A stretch of DNA of 64,000 bases from Escherichia phage MirsaeidiM_Esher1. Shown piece by piece: positions 1,053 to 4,197 of this stretch. The stretch is taken from sequence record PQ438048.1; one strand, written 5' to 3'. Numbering within the stretch: the stretch's first letter is position 1; each line of letters opens with the position of its first letter. A program made the translations under genes and the position numbers. The notes beneath the pieces were generated by a model, which saw nothing but the letters and a program-made list of their open reading frames with translations, did not search any database and was not told the origin of the DNA.

Positions 1053-1616
1053 ATGATTTATTATATTACTCCCTATCTGACAGGAAATATCGGCAAGGCT
1101 ATCAATGAAGCTATTGCCGTTCTTCCAGATGATAGTTGGGTGTGCTTAAGAGATACCGATACAATGTTCCTCCTGCCTGATCAACCATCTATGCTTGAAG
1201 AGCTTGTTATGTCAAACCCGCCTTTTGATGTAATAGGTGCAACTTGTAACAGGTTAGGTAGTGGTTATCAGCTTTTCTCTAACCAAATTAACGATGATCC
1301 AGATATTCTAAACCATATAGAATATGCTAAGATTGCAAGAGAATATCATAAAGTGAGTGTTGAAGAAGTTCCTTTCGGAACACCTCTGGCAGGTTTCTTC
1401 TTGCTTTTTAGAAAATCATTGTGGAATGAAATTCCTTTCGAAGAAAAATCTATCCAATTCGACTTAATTTTCTCTCGCACTTTACATGAAAAAGGAAAGA
1501 GGTTAGGATTGATGCGGGGAATGTATCTGTTTCACATTTACAGATTAGGTCAAACAAATCCTCAACGGTCTATACATCATTTATTACACTGTCATGATCA
1601 CAGTAAAACTATTTAG
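1053..1616 (+). CDS. hypothetical protein, possible GT-A-like glycosyltransferase
   Basis: ORF with GGAGGGGAG RBS; first gene of a glycosyltransferase-like cluster; weak DTD motif. Confidence 0.3.
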   Translation: MIYYITPYLTGNIGKAINEAIAVLPDDSWVCLRDTDTMFLLPDQPSMLEELVMSNPPFDVIGATCNRLGSGYQLFSNQINDDPDILNHIEYAKIAREYHKVSVEEVPFGTPLAGFFLLFRKSLWNEIPFEEKSIQFDLIFSRTLHEKGKRLGLMRGMYLFHIYRLGQTNPQRSIHHLLHCHDHSKTI

Positions 1617-1624
1617 GAGAGAAA

Positions 1625-2308
1625 ATGGAAAATATTAAAATTGGAGTGGGTGTTATCACTGTAGGTGTCCGTCCACTTAAAGACTACCTTGTAACAGATC
1701 CACGTGCAGATTTTCGAGTATTCAACGATCCAGATCGTAAAGGTGTAGCTTATGCCAGGAATGAACTTATGCACCAGTTTTATGAAGAAGGTTATGATTA
1801 TTGGTTTATTTTTGACGACGATTGCTACCCAGTCATGGAGGGATGGGAAACATACTTTGTAGATCAAGCTGTCTCTGGAGGATGGGATTTCTTTGGTATG
1901 CCGGAGTATTTCAAAGATAAAGTTGTTGGAAGCAAAGGAGAAGTTATTCTCTGGGAACTTGCAATGTGTCAATTTGCAATGTATTCTCGTGCCGTTGTTG
2001 AGAAGATGGGTTATTTCCGTCCTTACACTCACGGCTATGGTTTTGAAGATGCTGAATGGGGACACCGTTTGAAAGCTGCTGGTTTGAATCATGGTATTCA
2101 GGCAACACCTTGTCCACTTCGTATCATGGCTTATATCCACCCAGACGATGTTTTTGGAAACAACCCTATGCCTTTTGCTAATCTGACAAAAGAAGAGAAA
2201 GAAGCTGCTATCGGGATTAACTGGGAAGAATATAAAGCATCTTTAGAGGATATTAAAAATGGGAAAATCCGAATTTCCTATGAGGAGGCACTGGCACATG
2301 TCAAATAA
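1625..2308 (+). CDS. putative glycosyltransferase (DxD-type)
   Basis: WFIFDDDCYP acidic DxD-like motif; AGGAGAG RBS. Confidence 0.4.
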   Translation: MENIKIGVGVITVGVRPLKDYLVTDPRADFRVFNDPDRKGVAYARNELMHQFYEEGYDYWFIFDDDCYPVMEGWETYFVDQAVSGGWDFFGMPEYFKDKVVGSKGEVILWELAMCQFAMYSRAVVEKMGYFRPYTHGYGFEDAEWGHRLKAAGLNHGIQATPCPLRIMAYIHPDDVFGNNPMPFANLTKEEKEAAIGINWEEYKASLEDIKNGKIRISYEEALAHVK

Positions 2309-3245
2309 AAAACGGTCTAAACTAAAAATTGATGCAAAACCTCATAGTGGTTGTGACTATCATCGTATTGTTATGCCATTTAACAACAATAATTTTCAAC
2401 CTAAGAAAGATATTGTTGTGTTTAACCGTATCCACTCTAAAGGTGCAGAATACGTTTTATCTTTGAAACGTCAAGGTGTTAAGGTTGTTGTAGATTTAGA
2501 TGATTTCTACCAACTTAATCCAGAACATTACTTAGCGAGTCTATACGAGTCAAACACTCATGCTATTGTGGCTATGGTTAAGCTTGCTGATGTGGTTATT
2601 GTAACTACGGAATACTTGGCATACAAGATCCGTCACTTAAATAGAAATGTCGTTGTGATCCGAAATGCACTTCCTTTTGATAGCGGACAATTCACTTTGT
2701 CAAATGATCGTTCATCCGGTACCCCTGTTGTATGGGCTGGCGGTGCTAGTCACGAACCCGATTTACGACTAGTCTCTAATACTTTCGATGATGAACTTCT
2801 TACTATTGCGGGGTATGAAGCATCGCAGAGCATCACGGGACAAGAGTGGATTAAGATTCGCAGAAATTTACCAAATGCCAAATATAAAGCCGCTGTAAAA
2901 GATTTAGATAATTACATGAGTGTTTACGAAAGTCATGCTATTGCTATAGCTCCTTTGGTAGATAATGATTTTAATAATTGTAAAAGTAATCTCAAAATCC
3001 TAGAAGCTGGAGCAAAAGGTATTCCGATTGTTTGTTCTAAGGTATTACCTTATTTTAACCCTGTAGATGCTCGCGCTGTTGCTTACGCAGAGAATAAAGC
3101 AGAATGGCATTACGAAATTGTTAAGCTTCTTCGCAATCCAAACTATCGGGAAGATCGTGGCTTGTTCTTGGCTGAACATGTTCGAACACATTATAATCTG
3201 GCAGATGCAAACGAGTTGCGACGCCAGGTTATTGAAAGTTTGTAG
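2297..3245 (+). CDS. glycosyltransferase, GT-B/group-1-like (paralog A)
   Basis: C-terminal motif NNCKSNLKILEAGAKGIPIVCS resembles the donor-binding EAmA.G.P.V region of GT-B enzymes; start moved to ATG 2297 after GAGGAGG. Confidence 0.55.
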
Positions 3246-3252
3246 GTGAAGT

Positions 3253-4197
3253 ATGGGACAAATAATTCTTGACAATCGTAACGGAATCAATTATAGTGTC
3301 TGCGATTTCCATAGGGTAGTGCTGCCTTACTCAAGGCAGTTCTCTTCACAACCTAAATACAATGTTTTCGTTTTTAACGGAGTGCCAACAAAAGGTAAAG
3401 AGGGCTTTTTAGCCCTTAAAAACCTAGGCTTTAAAATGGTTATGGATTTGGATGACTCTTTAGTTATTCCAAAAGGACACATGTTAGAAGGTATTTTTGA
3501 ATCAGGTATTCGTGAACATTTAAAATGGTTTTTAGAGCACAGTGATCTTGTTACAACTACGACACCTGCCTTGCAAGTTGAACTTTCACAATACAATGAT
3601 AATGTGCACATAATCCCTAATGGACTTCCTTATGACGAAGGTCAATTTGTGTTGACCCGTGATCGCTACTCCAAAACTCCATTAGTCTGGGCTGGAAGTG
3701 AAACACATAAGCAAGATTTGGCTATCTTGCCCGATTTTGGTAAAGATCTTACAATATGTGGTTTTCGTAGGGATTCTGAAGTTTTAAGTAGTCGTGAATG
3801 GTCTGTAATCAGAGAAAATGTAGCACCAACTTGTGTTTATGAAGGTGTAAGACCATATGCCAACTACATGGAATCTTACGATGGTCATCAAATAAGTCTT
3901 GCGCCACTGATTGATAACGTGTTTAATAATGCAAAAAGCAATCTTAAAATTCTTGAGGCAGGTGCTAAGGGTTTACCTTTGATCTGTTCTCCTCGTGAGA
4001 ATTATCATACACAAGAGTTTAAAGATCTGTTGTTCTTTGCTGAAACACCTTCCGAGTGGAAAGATATTACGGAATACTTATTAAGTGCTCCCGATGTTTG
4101 CATGGAGAAAGGATTAGCATTAGCTAAGTATGTCAGGACTCATTATCACATTGATGTGTTGAATGAGCGTCGTAGACTTTTATTTGAGGAGCTATAA
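3253..4197 (+). CDS. glycosyltransferase, GT-B/group-1-like (paralog B)
   Basis: Collinear similarity to the upstream gene over its length (e.g. NNAKSNLKILEAGAKGLPLICS, PLVWAGSETHKQDL vs PVVWAGGASHEPDL). Confidence 0.55.
   Translation: MGQIILDNRNGINYSVCDFHRVVLPYSRQFSSQPKYNVFVFNGVPTKGKEGFLALKNLGFKMVMDLDDSLVIPKGHMLEGIFESGIREHLKWFLEHSDLVTTTTPALQVELSQYNDNVHIIPNGLPYDEGQFVLTRDRYSKTPLVWAGSETHKQDLAILPDFGKDLTICGFRRDSEVLSSREWSVIRENVAPTCVYEGVRPYANYMESYDGHQISLAPLIDNVFNNAKSNLKILEAGAKGLPLICSPRENYHTQEFKDLLFFAETPSEWKDITEYLLSAPDVCMEKGLALAKYVRTHYHIDVLNERRRLLFEEL

Follow-up and report, generated by a model that had tools for sequence, protein, structure and literature searches.

A mobile GT-B and GT-A glycosyltransferase module in an Escherichia phage, tentatively assigned to glycan assembly on virion proteins

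In chloroviruses and mimivirus, virion proteins are decorated by several GT-A and GT-B enzymes of the cytoplasm, and a rhamnose nucleotide-sugar pathway is encoded alongside. Among phages, the capsid and tail tube of the Cluster F mycobacteriophage Che8 are glycosylated (PMC12363180, PMC11256854). Here, a cassette of four glycosyltransferase genes was analyzed in Escherichia phage MirsaeidiM_Esher1 within a window of 64,000 nt (PQ438048.1), whose positions serve as coordinates throughout. The genes are labeled GT1 to GT4 from 5' to 3'; these labels are distinct from the CAZy family GT4. The cassette is real and conserved but already annotated in public records. The present analysis adds that the cassette is mobile, that a GT3-type gene forms its core, and that it also occurs in Serratia and Pseudomonas prophages. 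A multi-step glycan line acting on an acceptor other than DNA is the likely function, and we tentatively propose that this line assembles its glycan stepwise on the structural proteins of the virion. The four genes are as follows:

1053..1616, + strand: GT1, a minimal glycosyltransferase (187 aa) with a GT-A fold, accessory within the cassette
1625..2308, + strand: GT2, a glycosyltransferase of GT-A type (227 aa) in which an FDDD motif and an ED pair are invariant
2298..3245, + strand: GT3, a GT-B glycosyltransferase of 315 aa, the ancestral type and universal core of the module
3253..4197, + strand: GT4, a GT-B glycosyltransferase of 314 aa, a diverged tandem paralog of GT3 specific to Phapecoctavirus and Justusliebigvirus

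The window is part of a Phapecoctavirus genome (subfamily Stephanstirmvirinae) and represents a phAPEC8-like E. coli phage. In a phage collection search, nt 1-8000 were 99.2% identical to Mt1B1_P17 and 98.5% identical to phAPEC8; 64 phage records covered at least 80% of the first 8 kb, and Mt1B1_P17 from position 43994 onward is colinear with the entire window, a few indels excepted. All four genes are named glycosyltransferase in the RefSeq record of Mt1B1_P17 and in many relatives. The fold notes of the phi92 GenBank record describe gp166 as a glycosyl-transferase, gp165 as a polypeptide GalNAc-transferase, gp164 as GT-B, and gp163 as a trehalose-synthase. A preliminary description of this DNA, made from its letters alone, had called four glycosyltransferase-like genes, including a tandem pair of GT-B paralogs, and had favored DNA as their target. 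Its calling of the four genes is borne out by open reading frames, PHROG matches, motifs, folds, and RefSeq names.

Curated sequence models captured these proteins poorly. GT1 had no match in Pfam or NCBIfam. The NCBIfam search with GT2 was likewise without a match, and its Pfam scores were all sub-threshold: TAGT at 19.3 bits (cut-off 27.5), Glycos_transf_2 at 14.4 (23.3), and Glyco_transf_7C at 13.6 (23). GT3 remained below the cut-offs of Glyco_trans_1_2 (PF13524, 20.6 vs 25) and Glyco_trans_1_4 (PF13692, 22.6 vs 27), and GT4 barely reached that of PF13524 (25.2 vs 25). PHROG families labeled glycosyltransferase matched the cassette proteins strongly, and GT2 matched PHROG 2456 at E 9e-79, 1579 at 7.6e-13, and 842 at 7.5e-6. 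Given weak curated models and strong PHROG matches, structure models were made for two of the proteins. GT1 and GT2 have the single Rossmann-like alpha/beta/alpha fold and DXD motif of GT-A enzymes, the assignment of GT2 being made by sequence. In GT1, D34 and D36 of the DXD motif are invariant in 22 sequences; in GT2, F63-D64-D65-D66 and the pair E141-D142 are invariant across 17 homologs, so the DDD motif noticed earlier in the gene at 1625 is genuine. The families of GT1 and GT2 gave only chance matches when their profiles were compared with the PDB, and hhalign detected no relationship between the two.

GT3 and GT4 have two Rossmann domains with an inter-domain cleft, the arrangement of GT-B enzymes, and both retain the invariant residues of their family. 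The second glutamate of the E-x7-E motif of CAZy family GT4 is nearly invariant (E235, within KSNLKILEAG), and the position of the first is occupied by A227 in the translation of GT4. Several residues of the GT-B N-terminal domain (H20, R21, P25, and D65/D67/D68) are kept across very different phages. By Kyte-Doolittle analysis, neither the four proteins nor their small neighbors contain a convincing transmembrane segment; the sole value above 1.6 occurs in GT3, at positions that align with a helix and a strand in the GT4 model. All four proteins thus look soluble. Net charge is strongly negative in the families of GT1 and GT2 (medians -5.7 and -11), GT4 is also acidic, and the N-terminal domain of GT3 is basic (about +7).

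GT3 and GT4 share 41% identity over 303 aa (E 3e-77), which upholds the earlier reading of tandem paralogs. Outside the subfamily, homologs are consistently nearer to GT3: the Serratia homolog is 50% identical to GT3 and 39% to GT4, and the Pseudomonas and lambdoid homologs are 43-45% identical to GT3 and 38-41% to GT4. GT4 is therefore the diverged duplicate. The second GT-B is confined to the Phapecoctavirus and Justusliebigvirus lineage, and two full GT-B copies are present in only 7 of 85 loci, including all contigs of the IMG/VR collection that are most similar to GT4. A figure of 51 two-copy loci obtained earlier was rejected as an artefact of short fragments drawn in by single-linkage clustering. 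The E. coli lineage carries all four genes. Klebsiella phage KP13-16 carries GT1, GT2, and GT3, and Klebsiella phage phi1_175008 carries GT1 and GT3, in both cases with GT3 as the single GT-B. Temperate phages carry GT2 and GT3 with or without GT1: all three are present in the Serratia prophage, and GT2 and GT3 in lambdoid phage contigs and Pseudomonas prophages. The GT3-type GT-B is thus the sole member found in every version of the module, the others being accessory, and GT2 is its commonest partner. As the ancestral type and universal core, GT3 is the probable initiating enzyme.

The mobility of this module is evident from its genomic sites. In a prophage of Serratia sp. M24T3, GT1, GT2, and GT3-type genes (41%, 37%, and 50% identity) lie between the lysis cassette and the small terminase gene. 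In two lambdoid contigs, GT2 and GT3 are flanked by the Q/ant region on one side and the lysis genes on the other, another contig carries them between TerL and portal, and in three Pseudomonas genomes they lie directly upstream of metallopeptidase, TerS, TerL, and portal genes. In the phi92 record, the genes flanking the cassette on both sides resemble PVP-SE1 gp006 and gp008, and phage collection searches returned no Vequintavirus among the records that carry the glycosyltransferases; taken together, these observations make the cassette look inserted into the replication module. The preliminary description had derived a DNA-modifying role from the neighboring replication genes. That argument is weak because the cassette looks inserted and the module is mobile, and the role it suggested is unsupported by the sites of the module elsewhere, which are far from replication genes.

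Distant relatives of the cassette GT-B were found in at least 568 viral stretches of IMG/VR, of which 80 loci were fetched for neighbor analysis. Frequent neighbors were GT2 homologs, a hexapeptide acetyltransferase, an S-adenosylmethionine-dependent methyltransferase (Methyltransf_23), HNH, and ParB-N, with the large terminase gene approximately 1.8 kb downstream; one locus additionally carried Glycos_transf_2, GT_PLOD, and a DegT aminotransferase. Such tailoring enzymes are typical of protein- or lipid-linked glycan pathways and fit a protein-linked glycan. A constant initiator together with variable extenders and sugar-tailoring enzymes is the hallmark of an oligosaccharide whose structure is subject to diversifying pressure. 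Among these loci, a large group of uncultured phages (L041-L098) encodes a GT-B of about 331 aa with 30-34% identity to GT4, just upstream of the terminase gene and beside a hexapeptide acetyltransferase, proteins of 140 aa and 80 aa, HNH, and ParB-N. The neighboring proteins of 160, 140, and 80 aa were considered as acceptors and rejected, having no homolog in MirsaeidiM_Esher1; they belong to the backbone of a different group of phages.

In the assembly line that we propose, the GT3-type GT-B would recognize the acceptor and add the first sugar, and GT1, GT2, and the duplicated GT-B GT4 would lengthen the chain or add branches to it, giving a short oligosaccharide. The line is most likely cytoplasmic, with a target other than DNA. 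The preferred acceptor would be Ser/Thr residues of phage structural proteins, giving the virion a glycan coat comparable to those of glycosylated mycobacteriophages and giant viruses; both this acceptor and the order of enzyme action are what we infer. Support comes from GT2, which matches Cluster F mycobacteriophage glycosyltransferases in tblastn (E ~1e-8, 26-27% identity over ~130 aa) and aligns with the N-terminal domain of Che8 gp108 (residues 41-179), a distant homology.

Several observations weigh against virion proteins as the acceptor. The likeness of GT2 to Che8 is limited to the nucleotide-sugar-binding half of the enzyme. Residues 9-331 of the 333-residue major capsid protein align with capsid proteins of Vequintavirus, which has no such glycosyltransferases, and the protein therefore lacks a C-terminal acceptor tail in the style of Che8; the inspected capsid, decoration, tube, and sheath proteins also have no Ser/Thr-rich tails. 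The conserved N-terminal domain residues of the GT-B family suggest a chemically constant acceptor rather than diverse capsids. Furthermore, we know of no Stephanstirmvirinae virion in which a glycoprotein has been demonstrated. A glycoprotein-stain study of E. coli phage JEP7 (PMC12894461) had seemed to speak directly against glycosylated virions but was set aside as irrelevant, since JEP7 is a 52.9-kb phage.

The rhamnose supply of the phage bears on the sugar donor. Outside the window, the following features were identified:

Mt1B1_P17 117033-118695 (L003:46034-47696), ~10 kb past the window end: RmlC, RmlD, and glutaredoxin genes beside the NrdAB ribonucleotide reductase genes

Both Rml identities are firm (RmlC, PF00908, E 8e-67; RmlD, PF04321, E 6e-73). 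Enterobacterales hosts already produce dTDP-4-keto-6-deoxyglucose for the biosynthesis of enterobacterial common antigen (ECA), and together with phage RmlC and RmlD this makes rhamnose plausible as the donor in one step or more. One or more of the transferases in E. coli Stephanstirmvirinae would thus probably take dTDP-L-rhamnose, and rhamnose is the donor we infer. RmlA and RmlB are reported to vary among Phapecoctavirus isolates (PMC10269720). RmlD occurs in 106 Escherichia phage records and so do the cassette glycosyltransferases; because this co-occurrence lies within one subfamily, it is not phylogenetically independent. KP13-16, which carries GT1 to GT3, encodes RmlC and RmlD nowhere in its genome, so the rhamnose link is not obligatory. 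A coliphage virion coated with a rhamnose-containing O-glycan by this mobile GT-B and GT-A module is a possibility that we consider rather less likely than not.

The preliminary description had also offered modification of host surface polysaccharide as an alternative. This idea is retained as a rival: an envelope glycolipid is nearly as likely an acceptor as virion proteins, and structural proteins are only slightly favored, the choice of acceptor being our own reading. Taken as a complete explanation, envelope remodeling is somewhat unlikely. Soluble enzymes at the inner membrane face would modify lipid-linked intermediates such as lipid A-core, or ECA or O-units linked to undecaprenyl pyrophosphate, and rhamnose-containing side branches would mask the phage's own receptors, thereby blocking superinfection and reducing the loss of progeny on debris; RmlC and RmlD would in addition divert dTDP-4-keto-6-deoxyglucose away from the Fuc4NAc residue of ECA. 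In temperate relatives, the enzyme pair would act as a lysogenic-conversion moron. The structural neighbors of the GT4 model speak for this explanation, since the top ones include PglH/WlaC, PglA, PimA, WbnH, WaaG, and WaaB, which use lipid-linked or membrane acceptors. The basic N-terminal domain of GT3 resembles that of peripheral membrane glycosyltransferases, and the conserved residues of the acceptor domain suit a conserved small acceptor. An 80-aa protein with 2-3 hydrophobic transmembrane-like segments adjoins the GT-B in 21 environmental loci, which points the same way. The prophage sites of the module (Q to lysis, lysis to terminase, and upstream of TerS) are what we take to be classic moron hot-spots. 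The reported receptors of the group are ECA and the first outer-core glucose of lipopolysaccharide (LPS; PMC8594841), which likewise favors an envelope target. Against it, a membrane anchor is lacking in all four proteins, and the cassette comes without flippase, Gtr-type partner, carrier-lipid, or export genes. The prophage copies lie on the late-operon strand and not beside the integrase gene and attachment site, next to which known seroconversion genes are usually located. Moreover, the phage is strictly lytic with a latent period that is short for replacing surface LPS or ECA, and the module is found in hosts as far apart as Enterobacterales and Pseudomonas, which have different outer cores.

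The breadth of these hosts suits another explanation, in which the enzymes act on a different cytoplasmic acceptor: a non-virion protein of host or phage involved in take-over or anti-defense, an RNA such as queuosine tRNA, or a small molecule. We regard this as unlikely overall. The solubility of all four enzymes fits this reading, and a module shared by unrelated phages and hosts would suit a conserved cellular target. Queuosine is glycosylated in eukaryotes by one GT-A and one GT-B enzyme, and the phage itself encodes a tRNA-Asn(GUU), a species that bears queuosine in bacteria. That a conserved cellular molecule of this kind is the target may be kept as a variant beside the O-glycan coat on the virion. 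However, two to four variable transferases and tailoring enzymes imply an exposed oligosaccharide under diversifying pressure, whereas known toxin and effector glycosyltransferases add one sugar. The PADLOC defense models gave zero matches to the cassette, and no specific cytoplasmic target has positive support.

The layout of the genes was compact. Gaps of 8 nt and 7 nt separate the genes, GT2 and GT3 overlap by 11 nt, and GT4 overlaps the next gene in an ATGA. The start codon of GT3 is the ATG at 2298, as in RefSeq, approximately 10 nt after a GAGGAGG ribosome-binding site; the start of 2297 given earlier was one base off. Downstream of the cassette are the following:

4197..4475, + strand: small conserved gene of 92 aa, ATGA overlap with GT4
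4488-6266: primase-helicase gene, Toprim and DnaB_C domains

This tight packing fits a single transcription unit continuing into the primase-helicase gene. A promoter and terminator scan of 1-12800 found sites no more frequent than in shuffled sequence and left the unit undefined. The 92-aa gene is translationally coupled to GT4 and probably belongs to the backbone rather than to the cassette. Its product falls in PHROG 4240, whose function is unassigned in PHROG; the phi92 ortholog, gp162, carries a record note of similarity to PVP-SE1 gp008, and Klebsiella phage phi1_175008 has a homolog. At the mobile loci in prophages, a search for homologs gave none.

DNA glycosylation, the mechanism favored in the preliminary description, would place rhamnose or hexoses on a modified base of phage DNA to evade nucleases. 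Among the serious options it has the least support, and we consider it highly improbable. The T-even phages provide a precedent in its favor, with a GT-B initiator and a GT-A extender. The packing of the cassette into a presumed transcription unit with replication genes also speaks for it, as do the several DNA methyltransferases encoded by the phage and the fact that DNA is an acceptor shared by all module hosts. GT2 further shows its weak match to PHROG 842, labeled 'beta-glucosyl-HMC-alpha-glucosyltransferase', and its sub-threshold TAGT score; these matches span only ~38 residues around the DXD motif. The GT4 fold is no nearer to DNA glucosyltransferases than to ordinary CAZy GT4-type enzymes and shows no specific relatedness to known DNA glycosyltransferases. 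The acidic character of GT1, GT2, and GT4 also argues against a DNA substrate, as does the lack of base-modifying genes alongside the module at its temperate Serratia, lambdoid, and Pseudomonas sites.

A further argument concerns the chemistry. Known phage DNA glycosylation requires a base hydroxyl, which a ThyA-family enzyme supplies as a hydroxymethyl-C or hydroxymethyl-U nucleotide or, by a recent finding, as a 5-hydroxy-C nucleotide (PMC13326640). In a phmmer search with a manually entered E. coli ThyA sequence against six-frame open reading frames, the best hit in the window and the complete, near-identical genome of Mt1B1_P17 had an E of 0.86; no ThyA-family enzyme is present. The search itself worked, since the identical query matched a ThyA homolog in the unrelated locus L073 at 1e-37. 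Only 1 of 89 related loci had a ThyA-family gene within its fetched flanks. The earlier remark that the window holds no hydroxymethylase was therefore correct, and extending the search for a dCMP/dUMP hydroxymethylase to the rest of the genome, as had been proposed, yielded none in complete Mt1B1_P17. A TET/JBP dioxygenase acting on DNA is the alternative source of the hydroxyl; no TET/JBP or other dioxygenase appears in the Mt1B1_P17 annotation, although not all open reading frames were scanned with a TET/JBP profile. Separately, a 332-aa protein of Mt1B1_P17 (L003:40048-41046) has a partial ThyX (Thy1) match at E 5e-8 and is the only thymidylate-synthase-like gene of that genome.

Restriction data in the literature, another check proposed with the preliminary description, likewise run counter to DNA glycosylation: the DNA reads as cut and the phages as sensitive to restriction-modification (RM). 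In one report (PMC10269720), only three phages withstood HincII in a restriction fragment screen, and the two identified by genus are T-evens, Dhakavirus ESCO47 and Tequatrovirus ESCO58. ESCO37, which is 99.2% identical to the window, and other Phapecoctavirus isolates fall outside these three, so that, by elimination, the DNA of Phapecoctavirus and Justusliebigvirus is read as cut by HincII. Rhamnose on the DNA of such phages has been suggested before (PMC7552041), and doubt about it has been published as well: the BASEL study called Vequintavirinae and their relatives 'exceptionally susceptible' to RM 'despite a putative dTDP glycosylation machinery' (PMC8594841). This RM-sensitive group includes a cassette carrier, as the phi92-like BASEL phage PaulScherrer possesses all four genes. 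Bulk hypermodification of DNA is thus very unlikely, and sparse or site-specific modification may occur.

Beyond the cassette, further features of the genome and its relatives were observed. An endosialidase tailspike of 921 aa at 25054-27819 (- strand) has End_N_terminal, End_beta_propel (E 5e-213), End_beta_barrel, End_tail_spike, and Peptidase_S74 domains, and the phage is consequently probably specific for polysialic-acid (K1/K92) capsules. It lies in a ~2.9-kb segment (24988-27931) that is missing from Mt1B1_P17; an endo-N-acetylneuraminidase gene is reported for ESCO5 and REC in PMC10269720. The stretch 12734-13725, which spans the 3' ends of the convergent SSB (+) and RCC1/Big_2 tail protein (-) genes, is not homologous to the 1.46 kb found at the equivalent place in Mt1B1_P17; gp117, which encodes a small endonuclease in Mt1B1_P17, is missing there, and a terminator-like hairpin was called at 12770-12797 on the - strand. 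The product of 6800-7594 (+) is named 'DNA N6-adenine methyltransferase' in several records and 'DarB-like anti-restriction' in one; it is unmatched in Pfam and NCBIfam, and its one match is PHROG 799 DNA-methyltransferase (residues 4-119, E 1e-10), so that the methyltransferase annotation rests on weak similarity. Ten tRNA genes (Met x2, Ile, Pro, Gln, Gly, Thr, Asn, Ser, and Arg) occupy 52656-54739 (-). Upstream of the window equivalent, at ~33.6-40.2 kb of Mt1B1_P17 (L001:9649-16226), a tellurite-resistance-type stress cluster encodes TerC-like membrane and TelA-like proteins and adjoins a ComF-like phosphoribosyltransferase (PF15610, E 2e-41) and a weak, sub-cut-off HAD-hydrolase match; TelA-like or general-stress (YceD-like) genes also precede the glycosyltransferases in KP13-16, phi1_175008, and phi92. 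An annotated 'GTP cyclohydrolase II' (L002:13858-14391, -) is a NADAR-domain protein (E 1e-35). MirsaeidiM_Esher1 is nearly identical to two records with other host names, 'Acinetobacter phage vB_AbaM_ABPW7' (98.9% identity) and 'Dompiswa phage TSP7_1', and 'Campylobacter phage' A110a, C3, and A145 and 'Klebsiella phage ZCKP1' have cassette, RmlD, or capsid orthologs at Justusliebigvirus/Phapecoctavirus-level identity. The host labels of these records look doubtful.

Phapecoctavirus and Justusliebigvirus are broad-host-range candidates for therapy and biocontrol, and the identity of the acceptor is an easily testable question in this therapy-relevant group. If the glycan coats the virion or rewrites LPS or ECA, immunogenicity, pharmacokinetics, receptor biology, and cocktail design would be affected. 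With a glycan coat on the virion, virion glycosylation would be widespread in phages of Gram-negative bacteria rather than a mycobacteriophage oddity, with direct consequences for how antibodies recognize Stephanstirmvirinae phages used in therapy and how these are cleared. The mobile GT3-core module, its Serratia and Pseudomonas prophage carriers, and the distant GT-B relatives in hundreds of uncultured contigs are new here, and the missing ThyA-family prerequisite makes the speculation about DNA concretely testable.

Compared with known systems, the cassette differs from Gtr-type seroconversion (GtrA/GtrB/GtrC), as it has no membrane flippase or periplasmic-face transferase and its Pfam matches are all to soluble GT-A and GT-B enzymes. 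It is also not specifically related to T4 AGT and BGT, to the T2/T6 beta-glucosyl-HMC-alpha-glucosyltransferase, or to the RB69/HY126 arabinosyltransferases, and no ThyA-family gene accompanies it. It resembles S. aureus TarP and TarM, which are prophage-encoded, and WaaG, PglH, and WbnH, soluble GT-A and GT-B enzymes that use lipid- or polymer-linked acceptors at the inner membrane face; all of these are structural neighbors. The prophage copies of the cassette occupy moron-like sites; the phage considered here is strictly lytic. Giant viruses contribute B736L, R699, and R655 to the structural neighbors, with no sequence homology beyond the fold; their rhamnose donor is UDP-linked rather than dTDP-linked, and their hosts are eukaryotic. 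The mycobacteriophage virion-glycosylation operons (Che8 gp108-110, Corndog gp38, and Myrna) differ from the cassette in the host, which is Gram-negative here, in GT1, GT3, and GT4, which have no counterpart in Che8, the GT-B initiator included, and in the C-terminal acceptor extension of the Che8 capsid, which was not found in this phage. Nevertheless, these operons resemble the cassette as multi-gene clusters of soluble glycosyltransferases in both lytic and temperate phages, share a methyltransferase with its environmental relatives, and include in the Cluster F enzymes, among them the N-terminal domain of Che8 gp108, distant homologs of GT2.

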